From UHGV virus genome UHGV-1732640: a DNA stretch of 14,821 nt; one strand, given 5' to 3'. Of the stretch, positions 1,564 through 11,055 are shown piece after piece (position 1 is the first letter of the stretch; every line of letters begins with the position of its first letter). Under the pieces are notes generated by a model. That model did not search any database. It was given only the letters and a program-made list of their open reading frames with translations, and was not told the DNA's origin. The position numbers and the translations under genes were made by a program. Source of the stretch: a virus.

Positions 1564-2058
1564 ATGGATCGAGAGTTAAAAAATCTGACGCTGAATATCA
1601 GTCAACTGGCGGCTCTGTCAGGTGTACATCGCCAGACTGCTGCGGCAAGGCTGCAAAATCTACCCGTTGCAGGGGGGCATGAAAGCAACCTCAAGCTTTA
1701 TCGGGGGGTTGATATTGTGTCGGCATTTCTGGCATTACCACCGCCGGTTGCAGAAGGCGAAATGGACGCGCATGAGCGCAAAGCCTGGTATCAGTCTGAA
1801 CGTGAGCGTCTTAAGTTCGAACAGGAAACGGCACAACTCATTCCGGCCAGTGATGTCAGACGGGAGTTTGCCATCTGGGCAAAAGCGGTCGTGCAGGTGC
1901 TGGAGACATTACCGGATATTCTTGAACGTGACTGCGGTCTGCAGCCTGCCGCTGTGAGCCGTGTTCAGTCCATTATTGATGATCTGCGCGATCAGATAGC
2001 CCTGCGGGTGACCGAAGCAGGTGCGGATGATGAGGAGGAATTACAGCGGGAGGAGTAA
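1564..2058 (+). CDS. Terminase small subunit (Nu1-like, N-terminal helix-turn-helix)
   Basis: 164 aa ORF directly upstream of and overlapping the large terminase (TAATG); GGAG 7 nt before the ATG; N-terminal HTH-like segment LNISQLAALSGVHRQTAAARLQ; acidic C-terminus; sits immediately downstream of the cos-like region. Confidence 0.75.
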   Translation: MDRELKNLTLNISQLAALSGVHRQTAAARLQNLPVAGGHESNLKLYRGVDIVSAFLALPPPVAEGEMDAHERKAWYQSERERLKFEQETAQLIPASDVRREFAIWAKAVVQVLETLPDILERDCGLQPAAVSRVQSIIDDLRDQIALRVTEAGADDEEELQREE

Positions 2059-4160
2059 TGCTGAATCAGGAAACCGCAAAGGCAGCACGAACCGATTCAG
2101 GTTATATCCTTCGCGCACCGAGACGAATGCGGGTTGCTGATGCCGTTGCTCAGTATATGCGGGTGCCCATGGGGGCAGGGAACTCAGTCCCGTGGGATCC
2201 GCTGGTGGCACCGTATGTTATTGAGCCGATGAACTGCCTGGCCTCGCGTGAATACGACGCAGTGATATTTGTTGGCCCGGCACGAACCGGCAAGACTATC
2301 GGCCTGATTGACGGCTGGGTGATTTACAACGTGATTTGCGATCCTGCTGATATGCTGATCATACAGATGACGGAGGAAAAAGCCCGCGAACACTCCAAAA
2401 AACGACTCGCCAGAACGTTTCGCGTCAGCCCGGAAGTGGTCAGTCGCCTGAGTCCGAACAAAAATGACAACAACGTTTATGACAGAACATTCCTTGCTGG
2501 TAACTACCTGAAAATCGGCTGGCCGTCAGTCAATATCATGTCCTCATCAGATTATAAATGCGTCGCGCTGACGGATTATGACCGTTTTCCGGAAGATATT
2601 GATGGCGAGGGGGATGCTTTCTCTCTTGCCTCAAAACGTACCACAACATTTATGTCCAGTGGTATGACGCTTGTGGAGAGTTCCCCCGGCAGGGATGTGA
2701 AGGATGTGAAATGGCGACGGACTTCACCGCATGAGGCTCCACCAACCACGGGGATACTGTCGCTCTATAACCGTGGCGATCGCCGTCGCTGGTACTGGCC
2801 TTGTCCACACTGTGGTGAGTATTTTCAGCCCTGCGGCGATGTGGTTGCTGGTTTCCGTGATATTGCCGATCCCGTGCTGGCAAGTGAGGCGGCTTATATT
2901 CAGTGTCCTTCCTGTTCAGGACGGATTATGCCTGAACAAAAACGTGAGCTGAACGGACGTGGGGTCTGGTTGCGGGATGGTGAATCCATCAATGCGGATG
3001 GCAGTCGTTATGGTGATCCCCGACGCTCACGTATTGCGTCATTCTGGATGGAGGGTCCGGCAGCTGCTTACCAGACACTCTCGCAACTCGTTTACAAACT
3101 GCTTACTGCAGAACAGGAATACGAGACAACCGGAAGTGAAGAAACACTCAAGACGGTTATCAATACCGACTGGGGATTACCTTATCTTCCCCGCGCCAGC
3201 ATGGAGCAACGAAAAAGTGAACTGCTTGAGCAGCGGGCAGAGCCAGTTCCTTCCCGCAGTGTGCCGGATGGCGTTAATTTCCTTGTGGCGACAGTGGATG
3301 TGCAGGCGGGACGTCATCGCCGTTTTGTGGTTCAGGTAACGGGCTATGGCAGCCGTGGCGAACGCTGGATTATTGATCGTTACAACATCACGCAGTCATT
3401 GCGCGGTGACAGCGACGGGGAGAGCCAGCGAATTGATCCGGCCAGCTATCCGGAAGACTGGGATGTCCTGCTGACGGATGTTTTTCATAAAAGCTGGCCG
3501 CTGGCCTCCGATCCTTCTCAACAAATGCGACTGATGGCAATGGCGGTGGACTCCGGCGGTGAAGACGGGGTCACTGATAATGCCTATAAATTCTGGCGTC
3601 GTTGCCGTCGTGATGGCCTTGGTAAACGTATTTACCTGTTTAAGGGCGACAGCATCCGGCGCGCAAAACTGATCACCCGTACATTCCCTGATAACACCGG
3701 ACGAACGGGCCGACGGGCGCAGGCCGCAGGTGATGTGCCGCTCTGGCTTCTTCAGACGGATGCACTGAAAGACCGGGTGAATAACGCGTTATGGCGTGAC
3801 TCGCCAGGTCCCGGCTATGTGCATTTCCCTGACTGGCTGGGGAGTTGGTTTTACGACGAACTGACGTATGAAGAGCGGAGCAGTGACGGGAAATGGAGTA
3901 AGCCAGGTCGCGGTGCCAACGAAGCTTTTGACCTGATGGTGTATGCCGAGGCTCTGGTCATTCTGCATGGATACGAAAAGATCCGCTGGCCGGATGCACC
4001 GGAGTGGGCGAGCCGGGAAACCTGGCTGGAGTGTGTCCCGGACAGTACCGAACCGTCACCCACACCGGAACCGGTATCCACGCCTGTTAAAAAACAAAAA
4101 CGGAAGAAAACAGTAACTGACGATGTTAACCCCTGGCTGACTTCCGGAGGATGGTTATGA
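2058..4160 (+). CDS. Terminase large subunit (lambda gpA family)
   Basis: 700 aa; Walker A-like GPARTGKT; CPHCGEYF Cys/His motif comparable to lambda gpA CPHCGEEQ; strong RBS GGGAGGAG; start overlaps the small terminase stop. Confidence 0.9.
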   Translation: MLNQETAKAARTDSGYILRAPRRMRVADAVAQYMRVPMGAGNSVPWDPLVAPYVIEPMNCLASREYDAVIFVGPARTGKTIGLIDGWVIYNVICDPADMLIIQMTEEKAREHSKKRLARTFRVSPEVVSRLSPNKNDNNVYDRTFLAGNYLKIGWPSVNIMSSSDYKCVALTDYDRFPEDIDGEGDAFSLASKRTTTFMSSGMTLVESSPGRDVKDVKWRRTSPHEAPPTTGILSLYNRGDRRRWYWPCPHCGEYFQPCGDVVAGFRDIADPVLASEAAYIQCPSCSGRIMPEQKRELNGRGVWLRDGESINADGSRYGDPRRSRIASFWMEGPAAAYQTLSQLVYKLLTAEQEYETTGSEETLKTVINTDWGLPYLPRASMEQRKSELLEQRAEPVPSRSVPDGVNFLVATVDVQAGRHRRFVVQVTGYGSRGERWIIDRYNITQSLRGDSDGESQRIDPASYPEDWDVLLTDVFHKSWPLASDPSQQMRLMAMAVDSGGEDGVTDNAYKFWRRCRRDGLGKRIYLFKGDSIRRAKLITRTFPDNTGRTGRRAQAAGDVPLWLLQTDALKDRVNNALWRDSPGPGYVHFPDWLGSWFYDELTYEERSSDGKWSKPGRGANEAFDLMVYAEALVILHGYEKIRWPDAPEWASRETWLECVPDSTEPSPTPEPVSTPVKKQKRKKTVTDDVNPWLTSGGWL

Positions 4161-4369: not shown

Positions 4370-5877
4370 TGGCAATTCTTGATGATGTGATTGGCGTTTT
4401 TTCACCAGGATGGAAAGCGGCAAGGCTGCGTTCCCGTGCGGTGATCCAGGCTTATGAGGCCGTAAAAACGACGCGGACACACAAAGCCCGGCGGGAAAAC
4501 CGAACTGCCGACCAGTTAAGCCAGTACGGGGCCGTGTCGTTACGTGAGCAGGCCCGTTACCTTGATAACAACCACGATCTGGTCATTGGTGTATTTGACA
4601 AGCTGGAAGAACGGGTGGTGGGGAAAAACGGGATTATTGTCGAGCCACATCCGGTATTACGCAATGGGGCCATTGCCCGTGACCTGGCTGCGGAGATTCG
4701 CACCCGATGGAGTGAATGGTCTGTCAGCCCGGAAGTCACCGGGCAGTTTACCCGTCCGATGCTGGAACGTCTGATGCTGCGTACCTGGCTGCGCGATGGT
4801 GAGGTGTTTGTCCAGATGGTTTCCGGGCGCATAAACAGCCTGACGCCTTCTGCCGGTGTTCATTTCTGGCTGGAGGCACTCGAGCCGGACTTTATTCCCA
4901 TGACCAGTGATGAGAGCAACAGGCTGAATCAGGGCGTGTTTGTTGATGACTGGGGGCGTCCCGAAAAATATCTGGTGTATAAAAGTCGTCCCGTATCCGG
5001 ACGGCAGATGGAAACCAAAGAAGTGGATGCAGAGCGAATGCTGCATCTTAAATTTGTTCGCCGTCTGCACCAGATGCGCGGGACGTCTTTGTTGTCCGGT
5101 GTGCTGATCCGCCTCAGTGCCCTGAAAGAGTATGAAGATTCTGAGCTGACTGCAGCAAGGATCGCCGCTGCTCTGGGGATGTACATCCGGAAAGGCGACG
5201 GGCAGAGCTATGAACCGGATGGTAATGGCAGCAAGGATAAGGAACGCGAGCTTACCATTCAGCCAGGCATTATTTACGACGATCTGAAACCCGGCGAAGA
5301 AATCGGAATGGTGAAGTCGGATCGTCCCAATCCTAACCTTGAAACTTTTCGTAATGGTCAGTTGCGTGCCGTGGCGGCGGGCAGTCGTCTGAGTTTTTCC
5401 AGTACGGCACGCAACTATAACGGCACTTACAGCGCCCAGCGTCAGGAGCTGGTTGAATCCACTGATGGCTACCTGATCCTGCAGGACTGGTTTATTGGTG
5501 CCGTCACCCGCCCGATGTATCGTGCCTGGCTGAAACAGGCTGTGGCATCCGGTGTTATCAGGCTACCCCGCGATCTTGACCGTTCTTCACTGTATACCGC
5601 GGTGTATTCCGGACCGGTGATGCCGTGGATTGACCCTGTTAAGGAGGCTGAGGCCTGGAAAATTCAGATTCGTGGTGGAGCAGCGACAGAATCAGACTGG
5701 GTACGTGCAGGTGGTCGTAATCCGAATGATGTCAAACGTCGGCGCAAGGCCGAAATTGATGAAAACCGCACGCTGGATCTGGTATTTGATACCGATCCGG
5801 CCAGTGATAAAGGAGGCAGCAGTGCCGCAACGAAACGACAAGAGCCGCAGCACACCGACGACCAGTCCGAAGAATAA
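4369..5877 (+). CDS. Portal protein (lambda gpB family)
   Basis: 502 aa from the ATG at 4369, which overlaps the W stop (TGATG) and has GAGG 5 nt upstream; the ORF extends upstream to 4297 but without a plausible start. Segment SRLSFSSTARNY resembles lambda B MSYSTARAS; position after W. Confidence 0.88.
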   Translation: MAILDDVIGVFSPGWKAARLRSRAVIQAYEAVKTTRTHKARRENRTADQLSQYGAVSLREQARYLDNNHDLVIGVFDKLEERVVGKNGIIVEPHPVLRNGAIARDLAAEIRTRWSEWSVSPEVTGQFTRPMLERLMLRTWLRDGEVFVQMVSGRINSLTPSAGVHFWLEALEPDFIPMTSDESNRLNQGVFVDDWGRPEKYLVYKSRPVSGRQMETKEVDAERMLHLKFVRRLHQMRGTSLLSGVLIRLSALKEYEDSELTAARIAAALGMYIRKGDGQSYEPDGNGSKDKERELTIQPGIIYDDLKPGEEIGMVKSDRPNPNLETFRNGQLRAVAAGSRLSFSSTARNYNGTYSAQRQELVESTDGYLILQDWFIGAVTRPMYRAWLKQAVASGVIRLPRDLDRSSLYTAVYSGPVMPWIDPVKEAEAWKIQIRGGAATESDWVRAGGRNPNDVKRRRKAEIDENRTLDLVFDTDPASDKGGSSAATKRQEPQHTDDQSEE

Positions 5878-5890
5878 TTCCTGGTTCAGG

Positions 5891-7849
5891 ATGCAGGCTG
5901 GTCACCAGAGTGACGCGGATATTTATATTTATGACGAGATTGGTTTCTGGGGTGTTACAGCGAAGCAGTTTATCAGTGATCTGAATGCACTGGGCGATAT
6001 CACCCACATTAATCTCCATATCAATTCACCGGGTGGCGATGTCTTTGAAGGCATCGCCATTTTTAATGCACTGAAAACACATGGTGCGTCCATTACCGTT
6101 TATGTCGACGGTGTGGCGGCGTCAATGGCGTCGGTCATTGCGATGGTGGGAAACCCGGTCATTATGCCGGAAAACACCTTCATGATGATTCATAAACCAT
6201 TTGGCTTTACGGGCGGTGATGCGGAGGACATGCGCACCTATGCCGACCTGCTCGATAAGGTTGAGGCGGTTCTGTTACCCGCTTATGCACAGAAAACCGG
6301 GAAAACCACCGATGAAATTGCTGCCATGCTGGCGGATGAGACCTGGATGTCCGGTGCCGAATGTCTGGCACATGGATTTGCTGATCAGGTGACGCCAGCC
6401 GTTAAGGCAATGGCATGTATTCAGTCAAAACGTACAGAGGAATTTAAAAAGATGCCGGAATCCATTCGAAACATGATTACTCCGCCACGCAACAGTGCTC
6501 CACGCGTACAGGATGATGAACCTGCAGCCTCCCGGACGCCAGTGCAGGCAGCAGCACCCGTGGTGGATGAAAACAGTATCCGTGCGCAGGTACTGGCAGA
6601 GCAAAAAGCGCGTGTAAACGGTATTAATGATCTGTTTGCCATGTTTGGCGGGCGTTATCAGACGCTGCAGGCTCAGTGTCTTGCCGATCCTGAATGTTCG
6701 CTGGAGCAGGCCCGCGAAAAGCTGTTGAACGAGATGGGGCGCGAGTCCACGCCATCCAATAAAAATACACCGGCTCATATTTATGCCGGTAACGGTAATT
6801 TTGTGGGGGACGGGATCCGCCAGGCGCTGATGGCGCGTGCCGGATTTGAAAAAACCGAACGTGATAATGTCTACAACGGGATGACCCTGCGTGAATATGC
6901 CCGTATGTCACTGACTGAACGGGGTATTGGGGTTTCCAGTTATAACCCGATGCAGATGGTCGGTGCGGCGTTCACACACAGTACGTCTGACTTCGGTAAT
7001 ATTCTGCTGGATGTTGCGAACAAAGCCATTCTGCAGGGCTGGGAAGATGCTCCTGAAACCTATGAACAGTGGACGCGGAAAGGTCAGTTGTCTGATTTTA
7101 AAATTGCCCATCGTGTGGGTATGGGGGGCTTCAGTGCTCTGCGTCAGGTGCGTGAAGGGGCGGAATATAAATACGTCACCACCGGAGATAAACAGGCCAC
7201 TATTGCACTGGCGACCTATGGCGAGCTGTTCAGTATCACCCGTCAGGCCATTATCAATGATGATCTGAATATGCTGACCGATGTCCCGATGAAACTGGGC
7301 CGTGCGGCGAAATCCACTATTGCCGATCTGGTTTATGCCATTCTGACGTCTAACCCGAAAATCTCCACAGATAATGTAAGTCTGTTCGATAAAGCGAAAC
7401 ATGCAAACGTACTGGAGAGCGCTGCAATGGACGTGGCATCGCTGGATAAAGCCCGCCAGTTGATGCGCGTTCAGAAAGAGGGGGAGCGTCATCTGAATAT
7501 TCGTCCTGCGTTCGTACTGGTACCGACGGCGATGGAGTCTGTTGCTAACCAGGTCATTCGCTCCTCAAGTGTCAAGGGGGCTGACATTAACGCCGGTATT
7601 ATTAACCCGGTGAAAGATTTTGCGACCGTTATTGCAGAGCCTCGTCTTGATGATAACAGCCAGACCACCTTCTACCTGGCTGCGTCAAAAGGCTCCGATA
7701 CGATTGAAGTGGCTTATCTCAACGGTGTGGATACGCCATATATTGATCAGATGGAGGGCTTCAGTGTGGATGGCGTGACAACGAAAGTGCGTATTGACGC
7801 CGGTGTCGCGCCAGTTGATCACCGCGGTCTGGTGAAATGTACGGTGTAA
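5891..7849 (+). CDS. Prohead protease (ClpP-like, S14-type) fused to linker/scaffold region and HK97-fold major capsid protein
   Basis: One uninterrupted frame. N-terminal about 200 aa has ClpP-like motifs (IYIYDEIG, NSPGGDVFEGIAIFNAL, AASMASVIAMVG, MMIHKP); the C-terminal about 330 aa resembles an HK97-type major capsid protein. Start uncertain: ATG 5891 has a weak RBS, while in-frame GTG 5822 follows AAGGAGG by 5 nt. Confidence 0.85.
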   Translation: MQAGHQSDADIYIYDEIGFWGVTAKQFISDLNALGDITHINLHINSPGGDVFEGIAIFNALKTHGASITVYVDGVAASMASVIAMVGNPVIMPENTFMMIHKPFGFTGGDAEDMRTYADLLDKVEAVLLPAYAQKTGKTTDEIAAMLADETWMSGAECLAHGFADQVTPAVKAMACIQSKRTEEFKKMPESIRNMITPPRNSAPRVQDDEPAASRTPVQAAAPVVDENSIRAQVLAEQKARVNGINDLFAMFGGRYQTLQAQCLADPECSLEQAREKLLNEMGRESTPSNKNTPAHIYAGNGNFVGDGIRQALMARAGFEKTERDNVYNGMTLREYARMSLTERGIGVSSYNPMQMVGAAFTHSTSDFGNILLDVANKAILQGWEDAPETYEQWTRKGQLSDFKIAHRVGMGGFSALRQVREGAEYKYVTTGDKQATIALATYGELFSITRQAIINDDLNMLTDVPMKLGRAAKSTIADLVYAILTSNPKISTDNVSLFDKAKHANVLESAAMDVASLDKARQLMRVQKEGERHLNIRPAFVLVPTAMESVANQVIRSSSVKGADINAGIINPVKDFATVIAEPRLDDNSQTTFYLAASKGSDTIEVAYLNGVDTPYIDQMEGFSVDGVTTKVRIDAGVAPVDHRGLVKCTV

Positions 7850-7871
7850 ACGTCGCAGACAACAACTCTGA

Positions 7872-7891
7872 TGGCCCGTAAGGGCTTTTTT
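7872..7891 (+). terminator. Rho-independent terminator-like hairpin after the capsid gene
   Basis: GGCCC-GTAA-GGGC stem-loop followed by a 7-T run, 22 nt after the capsid stop; a second GC hairpin (7904-7920) follows without a T-tract. Confidence 0.5.
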
Positions 7892-7935
7892 TGTACCTGA
7901 AATCAGCCCCTGAACGGGGCTGTGCGGAGACAGTT

Positions 7936-8259
7936 ATGGCAAAGAATTTTGTAGAAGAAGGAAAAACGGTGGCGATTGTTGCCAGTGCAGCCATCAGCAG
8001 CGGAGATCTGGTGCAGGTGGGTGATGTTTTTGCGGTGGCGCTGACCGATATTCCACAGGGTGAAACAGGCGACGGCATGACCGAAGGTGTGTTTATGCTG
8101 CCTAAGCTGAAAACGGATGACATGAAAACGGGTAAGAAGGTTTATCTGAAGTCCGGAAAAGTTCAGCTGACTAACAGCGGCTCTGATCCGCTGGTCGGGG
8201 TTGTCTGGGCAGATGCCGGAACCAGTGCAGAAGAAGTGCCGGTAAAACTCAATGTCTGA
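7936..8259 (+). CDS. Small head protein at the lambda FI/D position (107 aa); possible DUF2190-like decoration or head-completion protein
   Basis: ORF with GGAGA 5 nt before the ATG at 7936 (the ORF-track start at 7891 lies inside the terminator). Located between the capsid gene and the FII-like gene. Functional assignment is tentative. Confidence 0.6.
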   Translation: MAKNFVEEGKTVAIVASAAISSGDLVQVGDVFAVALTDIPQGETGDGMTEGVFMLPKLKTDDMKTGKKVYLKSGKVQLTNSGSDPLVGVVWADAGTSAEEVPVKLNV

Positions 8260-8527
8260 TCCCTTTTCCCGGCTGGCAGCGCATATGGATGCGATCACGG
8301 TCAGAAAGATGGGAAAGACAGCCTCGATTAATGATGCCGATATGACTGTGATCCCGGGAGAAACACTGGCAGAGCTGAATGCTCTGTCCGGACCTGCGGT
8401 CTCTCTGGTGGTGTTTTCTTCGGGATACCGCCCACGGCGCGGGGATCGCGTTGTTTATGACGGACAACAATGGACGGTCACACGGCATGAACGTTTTAAC
8501 GGTAAGCCAATGATCTTTATTGAGTAA
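8252..8527 (+). CDS. Head-tail joining protein (gpFII-like)
   Basis: 91 aa; N-terminus MSDPFSRLAAHMDAITVRKMGKTAS aligns with lambda FII MADFDNLFDAAIARADETIRGYMGTSA; shared RRGD...W.V.R pattern; lies immediately before Z; 8-nt overlap with the preceding gene. Confidence 0.7.
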   Translation: MSDPFSRLAAHMDAITVRKMGKTASINDADMTVIPGETLAELNALSGPAVSLVVFSSGYRPRRGDRVVYDGQQWTVTRHERFNGKPMIFIE

Positions 8528-8538
8528 AGAGGTGTGGG

Positions 8539-9117
8539 ATGAAGGGGCTTGAGAATGCCATCCGTAATCTGAACAGCCTTGATACCCGTATGGTGCCACA
8601 GGCCAGCGCATGGGCGATAAACCGTGTGGCACAGAAAGCGGTCTCGGTCGCCACCCGGCAGGTTGCCGGGAATACCGTTGCGGGAGATAACCAGGTGAAA
8701 GGGATCCCCCTGAAACTGGTACGTCAGCGTGTCCGGGTGTTTAAAGCCAGTCCGTCAGGAAAAATGACGGCCAGGATCCGCGTTAACCGGGGCAATCTGC
8801 CCGCTATTAAGCTGGGGACAGCCCGGGTCAGACTGGCCCGGCGTGGTGGAAAACTGCAGTACCGTGGCAGTGTGCTGAAGGTGGGTAAATATCTTTTCCG
8901 GGATGCGTTTATTCAGCAACTGGCGAATGGTCGCTGGCATGTGATGCGGCGTATTGATGGCAAAAATCGTTACCCCATTGATGTGGTGAAAGTCCCGCTG
9001 TCCGGACCGCTGACACAGGCATTTGAAGATGCCCGCGACCGCATTATTGCTGCGGAAATGCCGAAACAGCTGGGGTATGCACTGAAACAACAACTGAGGT
9101 TATGGCTGACCCGATGA
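8539..9117 (+). CDS. Z: Tail completion protein Z
   Basis: 192 aa, same length as lambda Z, with collinear matches (KGLE..NL, AINRVA, RIRVNRGNLPAIKLG, FIQQLANGRWHVMRR, GKNRYPIDVVK, LGYAL.QQLR); AAGAGG RBS 6 nt upstream. Confidence 0.92.
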   Translation: MKGLENAIRNLNSLDTRMVPQASAWAINRVAQKAVSVATRQVAGNTVAGDNQVKGIPLKLVRQRVRVFKASPSGKMTARIRVNRGNLPAIKLGTARVRLARRGGKLQYRGSVLKVGKYLFRDAFIQQLANGRWHVMRRIDGKNRYPIDVVKVPLSGPLTQAFEDARDRIIAAEMPKQLGYALKQQLRLWLTR

Positions 9118-9515
9118 ACCGACATACACAAATCCGCCAGGCCGTACTGGCACGCCTTCGGGAACAGTGTGGAGACAGCGCCACGTTTTTTGACGGGCTT
9201 CCGGCATTTATTGATGCGCAGGAACTGCCTGCCGTGGCGGTGTGGCTGAGTGATGCTCAGTACACCGGAAAAATGACGGATGAAGATGACTGGCAGGCTG
9301 TTCTGCATATTGCTGTCTTCATCCGGGCACAGGCACCGGATTCAGAGCTGGATATGTGGATGGAGAGCACCATTTTCCCGGCTCTGAATGATATACCGGC
9401 ACTTTCCGGACTCATCGACACCCTGATCCCTCTCGGTTTTAACTATCAACGTGATAATGAGATGGCCACCTGGGCGATGGCGGAAATCACGTACCAGATC
9501 ACGTACACGAATTAA
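9114..9515 (+). CDS. U: Tail terminator protein U
   Basis: Collinear with lambda U (ATFFDG.PA, LPAVAV.L, YTG, LHI.VF, PDSELD.WMES.I.P, IPALS.LI); the start at ATG 9114 (MNRHTQIRQAVL vs lambda MKHTELRAAVL) overlaps the Z stop (ATGA). Confidence 0.9.
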   Translation: MNRHTQIRQAVLARLREQCGDSATFFDGLPAFIDAQELPAVAVWLSDAQYTGKMTDEDDWQAVLHIAVFIRAQAPDSELDMWMESTIFPALNDIPALSGLIDTLIPLGFNYQRDNEMATWAMAEITYQITYTN

Positions 9516-9526
9516 AGGAGGTGGCA

Positions 9527-10270
9527 ATGACCACACCAAATCCACTGGCAAAAACGAAAGGTGCGGGAACGACGTTCTGGATGTACACCGGCAAGGGCGA
9601 TGCGTTTGCGAACCCTTTATCGGACACTGACTGGCTGCGTCTTGCGATGGTGAAGGATCTGCAACCTGGCGAAATGACCGCTGATGCAGAAGATGACACT
9701 TATCTCGATGATGAAGATGCAGACTGGAAAACGACAACCCAGGGGCAGAAATCCGTCGGTGATACTTCGGCGACGCTGGCCTGGCGTCCGGGTGACAGCG
9801 GGCAGAAAAAACTGGTTCAGTTGTTCGACTCCGGTGAAGTCTGCGCGTTTCGTATCAAATATCCCAACGGCACTGTTGATGTTTTCCGTGGCTGGCTGAG
9901 CTCACTGGGTAAAACCATTGCCTCAAAAGACGTGATGACCCGCACAGTGAAAATTAGCGGTGTGGGGCGTCCGCATCTGGCAGAGGAAGGCACTGAAACA
10001 GTGAGCGTTACCGGGCTGACGGTGGCACCGGCATCTGCCAGTGTAAAAGTGGGAGCAACCACCACGCTGACCTTTACAGTAAAACCTGACGGAGCCAGTG
10101 ACAAAGCGATCAGTGTGCATTCGACAGATCCACAGACTGCCACGGTGACCCTGAACGGGCTTGTGGCCACGGTGAAAGGCGTGAAGCAGGGCAGTGTCAG
10201 CATTGTGGGCATGACTTCTGACGGCGATTTTGTGGCCGTGGCTGCGGTGGCTGTCAGCGCCGCAGGTTAA
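9527..10270 (+). CDS. V: Major tail tube protein V with C-terminal Ig-like (Big_2-type) domain
   Basis: Near-collinear with lambda V (KGAGTT.W.Y, ANPLSD.DW.RLA.VKDL.PGE.TA, DDSYLDDEDADW, GDTS.TLAW.PG, NGTVDVFRGW.SS.GK, TRTVK...VGRP); AAGGAGG RBS 6 nt before ATG 9527. Confidence 0.92.
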   Translation: MTTPNPLAKTKGAGTTFWMYTGKGDAFANPLSDTDWLRLAMVKDLQPGEMTADAEDDTYLDDEDADWKTTTQGQKSVGDTSATLAWRPGDSGQKKLVQLFDSGEVCAFRIKYPNGTVDVFRGWLSSLGKTIASKDVMTRTVKISGVGRPHLAEEGTETVSVTGLTVAPASASVKVGATTTLTFTVKPDGASDKAISVHSTDPQTATVTLNGLVATVKGVKQGSVSIVGMTSDGDFVAVAAVAVSAAG

Positions 10271-10290
10271 CAGGACGATACTCATCATTT

Positions 10291-10314
10291 GCCCCGGTTA
10301 TCCGGGGCTTTTTT
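10291..10314 (+). terminator. Rho-independent terminator-like hairpin after V
   Basis: GCCCCGG-TTAT-CCGGGGC stem-loop followed by TTTTTT, 21 nt after the V stop and just upstream of the G RBS. Confidence 0.55.
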
Positions 10315-10330
10315 GCAGGTGGAGAACATG

Positions 10331-10717
10331 ATGTTTCTGAAACAGGGCTCGTTTAATTATGAAAAGCAGTCCGTGGTGCTCAGTGAGCTGTCCGGGCTGC
10401 AGAGAATTGAATATCTGGCGTTTGTTCAGCAGCGAACGGCAAAGTTTGATGCCGAAGAGGGAGAACTGCCGGAGGCTGAACGACAGATTGCTTTTCTGCG
10501 GATGGGGATGGATATCAATGCCTGGCTGGTTTCCCGCTCACTGTGGAATGCGGAACAGTCTCAGGATGTTGAGACGCTTTGCGCATCCGTTATTACAACA
10601 TGGTCGTATGATGCCCTGGGAGCGGGGGCGGAGATGGTTCTGTCGCTGAGCGGTATGGGAGCCATTGAGAATGCCGGGGATTTGGAGCATGAGGTGCTGA
10701 CGCCGGAAAAGTCCTGA
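10331..10717 (+). CDS. G: Tail assembly chaperone G
   Basis: N-terminus MFLKQGSFNYEKQSVVLSELSGLQRIEYLAF parallels lambda G MFLKTESFEHNGVTVTLSELSALQRIEHLAL; GGAGA 5 nt before ATG 10331. Confidence 0.88.
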   Translation: MFLKQGSFNYEKQSVVLSELSGLQRIEYLAFVQQRTAKFDAEEGELPEAERQIAFLRMGMDINAWLVSRSLWNAEQSQDVETLCASVITTWSYDALGAGAEMVLSLSGMGAIENAGDLEHEVLTPEKS

Positions 10718-11055
10718 CGCGGGAAATGCAGTTTGTCATGCGGCTTGCCCGGGAGTTCCGGCGGGCAGACTGGCGGCGGATGCTGTCGGAAATGTCGGCC
10801 ACTGAGCTTGGTGAATGGGGCGATTATTTCCAGATGCAGAGCTTCAGTGATGTGTGGATGGATGCGCAGTTTGCCTCGCTGAAGGCATTGATCGTGAGAA
10901 TGGTGTCCGGTAGCAGTGATGCTGCGGTGGCTGATTTCAGCCTTTTACCGGAAGAGAACGGGATACCGGAGCGAACGGACGAAGAACTGATGCATCTTGG
11001 GGAAGGTATTTCCGGAGGTGTGCGTTATGGACCAGATAGCCAACCTGGTCATTGA
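10331..11055 (+). CDS. T: Tail assembly chaperone G-T fusion, predicted to arise by a programmed -1 ribosomal frameshift near 10705-10711
   Basis: The T frame is -1 relative to G and is open from 10693, overlapping the last 7 G codons. The only A-rich candidate slip site is G GAA AAG (10705-10711), against lambda G GGA AAG. The ATG at 10726 has no RBS, consistent with T being made only as a fusion. The arrangement is conserved in lambda-like tail modules. Confidence 0.6.

Follow-up and report, generated by a model that had tools for sequence, protein, structure and literature searches.

A conserved terminator-like hairpin, spacer and second hairpin downstream of the capsid gene in mEp460-type lambdoid phages

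Introduction

What does a terminator-like hairpin do in the middle of a phage late operon, directly behind the major capsid gene? The question is raised by UHGV virus genome UHGV-1732640, of which we analyzed a stretch of 14,821 nucleotides (nt) (the window; positions refer to it unless another sequence is named), and in particular by the 86-nt gap that separates its major capsid gene from the gene that follows. The window is the packaging, head and tail region of a lambdoid Escherichia coli phage of the mEp460/cdtI/Ayreon type, with 98.6-99.5% identity to phages of this type across 5600-10400 (98.7-99.1% to mEp460 and Ayreon, 98.7% to mEp460 itself). Every gene lies on the + strand, and their order and orientation fit one long + strand operon, the gene for the antiterminator Q and the late promoter being outside the window; an "anti-termination protein Q-like" is encoded upstream of the lysis genes in mEp460. 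As established for lambda, RNA polymerase under Q-type antitermination resists intrinsic terminators. For about 25 years, terminators have been noticed within antiterminated late operons of phages, without an assigned function.

A preliminary description of this gap, made from its letters alone, proposed that the hairpin attenuates downstream expression or stabilizes the 3' end of the capsid transcript despite late antitermination, which we regard as the standard hypotheses for such sites. Here we dissect the gap into a minimal putative terminator (hairpin 1 and its T-run), a spacer, a second hairpin and the Shine-Dalgarno (SD) sequence of the next gene, trace this arrangement through related phages and prophages, and weigh what it may do.

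Results

The stem of hairpin 1 begins 26 nt after the first base of the capsid stop codon (TAA, 7847-7849) and consists of four G-C pairs and one G.U pair (G7873.U7886, G7874-C7885, C7875-G7884, C7876-G7883 and C7877-G7882) around the loop GUAA (7878-7881), with a computed folding energy of -8.8 kcal/mol (z -2.3). It runs directly into the only stretch of seven T on the + strand of the window (7886-7892), so that the site has a G/C-rich stem-loop, an uninterrupted U-tract at the stem base, sense orientation and a noncoding position past a stop codon, as intrinsic terminators do. The preliminary description had placed the hairpin at 7872-7884 and the end of the T-run at 7891; both features are real, with coordinates shifted by 1 nt. 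Because a loose terminator scan was uninformative (33 sites, with 13 expected), we applied a strict rule that demands a hairpin with at least four G-C pairs followed immediately by at least six consecutive T. Over the 14.8 kb this rule returned two matches, which start at 7873 and 10291; both are intergenic and lie on the + strand, and the - strand gave none. In comparison, 500 dinucleotide shuffles gave a mean of 0.024 matches, and 0/500 reached two.

We then compared capsid-gene 3' flanks from 9 phages and 80 bacterial genome loci, the latter found with a capsid C-terminal alignment (59-100% amino-acid identity). A hairpin with a T-run stands just past the capsid stop in 74 of the 82 distinct sequences, which span Escherichia, Salmonella, Klebsiella, Proteus, Yersinia, Shewanella and Pseudomonas, and this recurrence, together with the strict scan, bears out the earlier view that the site is terminator-like. 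Fifty distinct sequences share one layout: GCCC-N4-GGGC, T7, the spacer ATAYCTRAAA, a hairpin of 6-10 bp, 0-4 nt and GGAG, with stem 1 beginning 20-33 nt after the first base of the stop codon. They come from Escherichia, Salmonella, Klebsiella, Enterobacter, Rahnella, Yersinia, Proteus, Providencia, Morganella, Xenorhabdus, Erwinia, Pantoea, Edwardsiella and other genera. The GCCC/GGGC stem is identical in all 50, which were picked with the pattern GCCC-N4-GGGY-T6-8, a selection that leaves the spacer and the second hairpin outside it. Within this clade hairpin 1 shows no covariation, and different stems (e.g., ACCGCC/GGCGGT and GACCGCAC/GUGCGGUU) appear only in deeper clades; other stems occupy the same place in myovirus-tailed relatives (such as Chris1 and yong2) and in Shewanella and Pseudomonas prophages. 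At such divergence hairpin 1 is kept as a structure and not as a sequence. Judged from sequence, hairpin 1 with its T7 is a strongly conserved terminator signal whose anatomy lies far above chance.

Beyond the spacer stands hairpin 2, a 7-bp stem of -13.9 kcal/mol (z -3.8). It too had been recognized before, at 7904-7920, and is real, its 3' end lying 2 nt farther on, at 7922; the folding energies, which the preliminary description had proposed to calculate, are in keeping with both hairpins. Since MAFFT with RNAalifold on the 50 raw sequences recovered hairpin 1 only, hairpin 2 being out of register between lineages, we built a covariance model (R1) from a gapless 13-sequence seed. In 60 related loci, model R1 matches once per locus, each time at this junction, and its sole match in the window is 7871-7931 (47.8 bits, E about 4e-8). 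In the model-based alignment of 51 distinct sequences each of the eight modelled pairs of hairpin 2 has undergone compensatory change, and pairing holds in 94.9% of cells; double-change cells number 84 versus 28.9 +/- 3.3 after shuffling (0/500 shuffles reach 84), and the covariation score is 0.408 versus at most 0.08 with the partners slid by 1-3 columns. Such an alignment leans towards its model; the seed alignment and an independent per-sequence hairpin search agree with it, the search finding a perfect 6-10 bp hairpin in 49/50 distinct relatives, with several pair types at each level, a start 8-13 nt past the T-run and an end 0-4 nt before the SD. The relatives also have frequent G.U pairs and UUCG or GNRA loops (e.g., GCAA), indicating that the structure is selected in the + strand RNA. 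On this comparative evidence hairpin 2 is a genuine conserved RNA structure that covaries independently of the terminator. The preliminary description had treated it as part of the terminator-like element, which does not hold: no T-run follows it, its covariation is its own, and it ends 0-4 nt before the SD. The two stems of the window measure 5 and 7 bp, those of relatives do not exceed 10 bp, and all fall short of the roughly 20 bp or more of double-stranded RNA typical of RNase III sites of the T7 type. We also considered a terminator/antiterminator switch in which the 3' arm of hairpin 1 (GGGC) pairs with the 5' arm of hairpin 2 (GCCCC); this pairing is possible in the window, but we rejected it, as it is not kept in relatives whose hairpin 2 reads CCGGCAC or CGGCUCC.

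The 11-nt spacer between the T-run and hairpin 2 has a mean pairwise column identity of 0.74. In the adjacent capsid gene third codon positions reach 0.47 and four-fold sites 0.39, and within the gap the values are 0.56 in loop 1 and 0.30 just upstream of hairpin 1; C7897 of the spacer is invariant in 50/50 sequences. These column identities argue that the spacer is under selection, being more conserved than synonymous sites. In the folding ensemble its CU (7897-7898) pairs around hairpin 2 with the first two G of the SD (7926-7927), with a probability of about 0.85 in the window and as the top partner in about 40% of relatives. Both partners are invariant, and covariation therefore cannot test the pairing, which the folding model suggests may form a partial SD clamp.

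The same identities bear on the idea that the gap yields a small RNA (sRNA), that is, an Hfq-binding RNA derived from the 3' untranslated region of the capsid mRNA, released from it with its end at hairpin 1 and U7, and regulating host or phage targets. A terminator hairpin with a U7 tail is the usual 3' end of Hfq-binding sRNAs (PMC4104026), and prophage late regions do encode sRNAs such as StxS (PMC7547250) and HnrS (PMC13502914). The 20-33 nt between stop codon and hairpin 1, however, vary freely in both sequence and length and are conserved below the level of synonymous sites; there is no conserved seed upstream of hairpin 1, and we consider an sRNA very unlikely. Rfam gives no match at the gathering threshold anywhere in the window, and at 7750-8050, with E values allowed up to 10, the lone match was a chance snoRNA (E = 9). 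Identity with HnrS was rejected, HnrS being confined to enterohaemorrhagic and enteropathogenic E. coli (EHEC and EPEC; PMC13502914), unlike the element, and a paper on the Pas sRNA gave no link to it.

The element, in the sequence it has in the window (at least 95% identity), is present in 1822/5426 complete E. coli genomes, and among the E. coli matches listed the site lies between a [quoted passage not shown] and a "DUF2190 family protein". Salmonella Gifsy-1/2 and Fels-1, like many EHEC prophages, carry diverged copies. Exact matches to a 22-base motif that spans hairpin 1, T-run and spacer occur in more than 120 viral contigs; among 120 of these, a capsid homologue stands just before the motif in 118 and a decoration-protein homologue just after it in 117. 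The one exception, in an unrelated viral contig (L129, 10905-10955), reads GGCCC-ATTT-GGGC, T7, ATACCTAAA and lies between a tail-fibre-like gene and a gene for a 79-amino-acid (aa) holin-like protein, with an SD directly after the spacer and without hairpin 2, so that terminator and downstream spacer may move, or be selected, as one unit. Two Buttiauxella prophages (L021, 1475-1565; L029, 1792-1885) have the full element but lack the decoration gene, the next gene being instead an FII-like head-tail gene 44% identical to the second downstream gene of the window. The element is thus retained without the decoration gene, indicating that it belongs to the 3' end of the capsid gene. In a Trabulsiella prophage (L083, 1795-1860) the 5' arm of hairpin 1 is missing (TGACAGGGCATTTTTTTATACTGA...), as the stop codon lies directly against what is left of it; the T-run, the spacer and hairpin 2 are still there, so that this amounts to a natural partial deletion of the terminator.

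The stray copy in L129 would also suit a DNA-level function (a joint left by recombination of modules, a site bound by a protein, or a terminator that works in both directions), as would the mosaicism of lambdoid genomes and the fading of DNA similarity to Stx phages some 20 nt past the start of the decoration gene. Yet the frequent G.U pairs of hairpin 2 would be A.C mismatches on the other strand, and the compensatory changes preserve pairing and not sequence. A chance palindrome is excluded by the strict-rule shuffles, and a bidirectional terminator was rejected because neither hairpin has a T-run after it on the - strand. We find a DNA-level feature extremely unlikely.

The gene upstream of the element (Table 1) was identified in the preliminary description as the major capsid gene, and its product confirms this, with CLP_protease at residues 23-168 (4e-36) and Phage_capsid_4 at residues 352-649 (7e-55) in Pfam, matches to phrog_133 and phrog_4523 ("major head and protease protein") and the RefSeq name [quoted passage not shown]. 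A fused protease-scaffold-capsid gene has been described for Gifsy-2, in work cited in PMC12315714. The gene downstream was thought to open a series of low-copy head-completion genes, and this assignment has to be given up: the product of 7936-8259 matches Phage_cement_2 (E 9e-21) and phrog_122 "head decoration" (2e-47) and is named "head decoration" in RefSeq mEp460. In the Gifsy-2 capsid a trimeric protein sits at every 3-fold axis, like lambda gpD (PMC8538268), so the decoration protein is needed in about the numbers of the capsid protein. Table S1 of PMC5013294 calls the corresponding gene of Salmonella Typhimurium 14028s a "putative RecA/RadA recombinase", and in one RefSeq genome of E. 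coli O157:H7 the match coincides with a "recombinase RecA" feature; this naming is almost certainly a propagated misannotation.

The identity of the downstream gene matters for the reading in which hairpin 1 is a dosage attenuator that would end a fixed fraction of late transcripts despite Q, leaving less mRNA past the capsid gene and past V. Terminators do stand right after the genes of the two most abundant virion proteins in the window, in HK97 and in many relatives; the stem has stayed short, at 4-5 bp, across more than 20 genera, as would suit partial termination; and in L021 and L029 the next gene truly is a low-copy head-completion gene. In the window and most relatives, however, the protein encoded next is roughly equimolar with the capsid protein, and there would be little sense in lowering dosage just ahead of it; mEp460 has a Q-like gene, and Q modification counters intrinsic terminators. 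The late-gene ratios of lambda are also said, in work by Sampson, Hendrix and colleagues (PNAS 1988), to come mainly from translation initiation, which counts against attenuation.

Published expression data from Gifsy-2 speak to both sides of this question. Table S1 of PMC5013294 gives, for two control sets of uninduced S. Typhimurium 14028s, basal normalized expression values that fall from 22-23 at the capsid gene to 5-6 at the decoration gene, as an attenuator would have it, and lie at 6-17 for the genes that follow through V; the T and H genes, past the V terminator, are back at 17-26. In these control data expression drops at hairpin 1 but without a monotonic step-down. Taking this together with the identity of the downstream gene, we think attenuation unlikely as the function of the element and infer that a dosage step-down is not its main purpose at the capsid site, the next gene normally encoding an equimolar decoration protein.

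The same RNA sequencing (RNA-seq) study reports that STM14_1174-8 (LT2 STM1034-1038) were strongly regulated upon transient HilA overexpression and co-expressed with genes of Salmonella pathogenicity island 1, and leaves their identity unremarked (PMC5013294). STM1034-STM1038 are the Gifsy-2 decoration gene through V (L003, 3284-5605, homologous to window 7936-10270), a block that coincides exactly with the interval between the capsid and V terminators, both of which we found in Gifsy-2. The block could reflect two terminators that bound non-antiterminated transcription, or an internal promoter. The latter would make decoration-to-V an autonomous unit, expressible in lysogens, with a promoter in or near the spacer and a transcript capped at its 5' end by hairpin 2 and ending at the V terminator. 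Besides the HilA-responsive block, the conservation of the spacer beyond the neutral rate would fit such a unit, in which hairpin 2 would serve as a 5'-terminal stabilizer; hairpins of this kind are a known device. A consensus scan for sigma-70 promoters (-35/-10 hexamers with 16-18 nt spacing), however, found none at 7850-7935 or in the Gifsy-2 gap, and by inspection of the alignment columns the best -10-like hexamers (TGTACC or TGAAAT in the window) lack the key A at -11 and a -35 partner. No HilA ChIP signal was obtained in PMC5013294, and the psp genes also responded there, so the effect may be an indirect (envelope-)stress response; HilA, moreover, is not found in E. coli. An autonomous unit is improbable in our view. 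Two other promoter candidates, noticed by eye, were rejected: a sigma-E -10 (TCTGA) in the spacer and a sigma-54 motif (GG-N10-GC) inside the Gifsy-2 hairpin 2, for want of a matching -35 and because the spacing is wrong.

The second match of the strict rule lies after the major tail gene V, whose 57-nt downstream gap and the 86-nt gap after the capsid gene are the two largest in the structural operon. Its hairpin (10291-10308) has seven G-C pairs and a folding energy of -16.2 kcal/mol (z -3.5), is stronger than hairpin 1, and is followed by T6 (10309-10314), the SD GGAG and the ATG of G at 10328. The preliminary description had spoken of a matching element here; a terminator-like hairpin is indeed present, but it does not match, as model R1 misses the V site, which is analogous to the capsid element and not a copy of it. 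A V-type terminator is absent from mEp213, 1720a-02 and lambda. The longest open reading frame (ORF) of G starts at TTG 10289 and would cross this hairpin; the start annotated in mEp460, the ATG preceded by GGAG, is preferable.

Table 1. Features of the capsid-decoration junction, the V terminator and the structural genes of the window
Feature	Position	Strand	Support
Whole intercistronic element: terminator hairpin, T7, spacer, hairpin 2, start of SD	7871-7931	+	covariance model R1
Hairpin 1, GGCCC-GUAA-GGGCU	7873-7886	+	folding; terminator annotation in mEp460 equivalent
T7 (U7) tract	7886-7892	+	sequence
Conserved single-stranded spacer GTACCTGAAAT, consensus ATAYCTRAAAt	7893-7903	+	column identity
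Hairpin 2, CAGCCCC-UGAAC-GGGGCUG, 5' of SD	7904-7922	+	folding and covariation
SD GGAG of the decoration gene, 6 nt before ATG 7936	7926-7929	+	sequence
Putative terminator after V, GCCCCGG-UUAU-CCGGGGC + T6	10291-10314	+	folding, strict scan, mEp460 annotation
terS	1564-2058	+	
terL	2058-4160	+	
Small head-tail adaptor gene	between terL and portal in gene list	+	
Portal gene	ends 5877	+	
ClpP-like prohead protease/scaffold/major capsid gene, tripartite, 652 aa	5891-7849	+	Pfam, PHROG, RefSeq
Head decoration (cement) protein gene, 107 aa, DUF2190	7936-8259	+	Pfam, PHROG, RefSeq mEp460
FII-like gene	8252-8527	+	
Z	8539-9117	+	
U	9102-9515	+	
V, major tail protein	9521-10270	+	Pfam Phage_TTP_12 (9e-67) and Big_2; phrog_41
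G	10328-10717	+	
T, H, M	after G	+	

Gene coordinates in Table 1 were taken from the ORF list and the mEp460 annotation. The RefSeq/GenBank record of mEp460 places a "rho-independent terminator" at 6334-6353 and another at 8751-8774, equivalent to 7873-7892 and 10290-10313 of the window, and the match likewise coincides with a terminator feature in Ayreon, mEp213 and mEp043, the last two with diverged sequence. The mEp460 and Ayreon records thus carry the same element but annotate only hairpin 1 and the V hairpin, citing no experiment, and leave hairpin 2, the spacer and the family-wide conservation unannotated. A third "rho-independent terminator" of mEp460 lies inside gene T (window 10928-10947); it reads GGCTGA-TTTC-AGCC + TTTT within coding sequence, fails both the loose and the strict scan and is probably a weak prediction. 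At the left end of the window, 148-1377 resembles, at about 82% identity, the ybcV/ybcW sequence that other lambdoid phages have at their right end. Some 100 nt before terS, where cos would be expected, an A/T-rich inverted repeat of 13 bp (ACTACTGTAATGT-ATTG-ATATTACAGTGGT; 1432-1461) leads into a T-rich run.

Discussion

The feature is of a known kind and is already annotated in near-identical phages; what is new, modestly, is the family-wide composite of about 60 nt (terminator, spacer ATAYCTRAAA, covarying hairpin 2 and SD), which recurs at this junction in many genera of Enterobacterales, and the correction of the downstream gene. Placement directly after the major capsid and major tail genes, as in HK97 and the P22-like phage L, also describes the two window sites. 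HK97 (NC_002167) has putative terminators right after its major head gene 5 (5192-5213) and its major tail gene (7443-7462), both of them G/C-rich hairpins in short intergenic gaps and in sense orientation. Unlike the window, HK97 shows no sequence homology at these sites, has only four T after the gene 5 hairpin and no T-run after the tail-gene hairpin, lacks a second SD-adjacent hairpin and a decoration gene, and has a capsid protein that is not fused to its protease. In phage L a terminator is predicted at the end of the procapsid module inside the antiterminated late operon, for which PMC8022706 offers partial termination or the stopping of non-antiterminated transcription, calling the roles of such sites not known. 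That site resembles ours as a predicted terminator just past the coat-protein module of a single-promoter late operon; it differs in phage type and capsid genes, is a prediction only, and has no second hairpin described. In lambda, GGCCGC-CUGU-GCGGCU + U7 forms a hairpin between decoration gene D and capsid gene E, and another, of 7 bp, follows E, so that in the type lambdoid phage too the capsid gene has terminator-like hairpins on either side. In lambda, however, decoration precedes capsid, there is no terminator after V, and neither homology nor a second SD-adjacent hairpin is seen.

Devices with the two activities at issue are known elsewhere. The T7 terminator T-phi is an intrinsic terminator right after capsid gene 10; it is leaky, so that downstream genes are still transcribed, and its hairpin stabilizes the abundant T7 capsid mRNA. 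T-phi differs from the window site in acting on T7 RNA polymerase, in the lack of a Q-type antiterminator and in a much longer stem. Protective stem-loops in mRNA include the 5'-untranslated hairpins of ompA and the intercistronic hairpins of malEFG and papBA, which give segmental stability. Hairpin 2 resembles these in being stable, covarying, intercistronic and SD-adjacent, 0-4 nt upstream, as a barrier to decay or a 5' stabilizer would be, a likeness of anatomy only.

The terminator anatomy of hairpin 1, its conserved position, the + strand covariation of hairpin 2, the conservation of the spacer and the linkage to the capsid gene are the observations from which we propose a mechanism. We see in the gap a cis-acting RNA element, conserved and about 60 nt long, that would act in the + (mRNA) strand. 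It would begin with a minimal Rho-independent terminator, whose all-G/C stem of 4-5 bp carries a tetraloop and leads into U7, and continue with an 11-nt spacer and a hairpin of 6-10 bp. RNA polymerase without Q modification, as in stray transcription of a prophage or early in infection, would stop at U7, and the stronger V terminator would likewise close the next block, whereas Q-modified late transcription would mostly read through. In the read-through RNA both hairpins would block 3'-to-5' exonucleases, so that the capsid message would outlive the RNA downstream, and hairpin 2 would lock away the G/C-rich sequence beside the SD, leaving the next gene to start translation independently. A weak terminator for non-Q polymerase, with hairpins that shield the capsid message and insulate the SD, is the best explanation we can offer, and we consider it probable, if well short of certain.

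Several points weigh against this explanation. Every functional step in it is one that we infer. Hairpin 1 is at the weak, short end of the terminator range, with four G-C pairs and -8.8 kcal/mol, and its termination efficiency may be low for that reason; the invariance of stem 1 in the 50 relatives is partly circular, since the stem and the T-run belong to the pattern by which they were selected. Lambda lacks a terminator after V, and all it has after E is a hairpin poor in T; it manages without such sites, which are therefore not essential to lambdoid late operons. The STM1034-1038 block could be an artefact of read mapping between Gifsy-1 and Gifsy-2, or the product of an internal promoter. 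Finally, the predicted CU-SD pairing, where it forms, would tune translation and not stability.

A bolder version of the proposal can also be stated, in which the element is a dedicated regulatory RNA module of heads of the Gifsy-2/mEp460 type. It would either delimit a decoration-to-V unit that can be switched on in the lysogen independently of the late promoter, at which the HilA-responsive STM1034-1038 block hints, or set the capsid-to-decoration ratio post-transcriptionally through the invariant CU that clamps the SD around hairpin 2. This is a long shot in our estimate; if it were true, it would add an undescribed layer of control to the lambdoid late operon in about one-third of E. coli genomes.

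Conclusions

The element is real, functional-looking and very widespread; it is ordinary in kind and modestly interesting in detail. For annotation, hairpin 2 should be included in the element, and the name "RecA/RadA recombinase" should be dropped for the decoration gene. The element is unusually tractable, being widespread in E. coli, clear in its anatomy and built from an invariant and a covarying part, and hosts that carry it already have public Term-seq, differential RNA-seq (dRNA-seq) and RNase E/Hfq crosslinking data, the Term-seq and dRNA-seq set for EHEC Sakai being GSE143631 (as cited in PMC7547250) and the Hfq and RNase E crosslinking sets PRJNA197291 and PRJNA310426. Its role would show whether sites of this kind insulate prophage structural genes from stray transcription, shape mRNA stability or set protein ratios.

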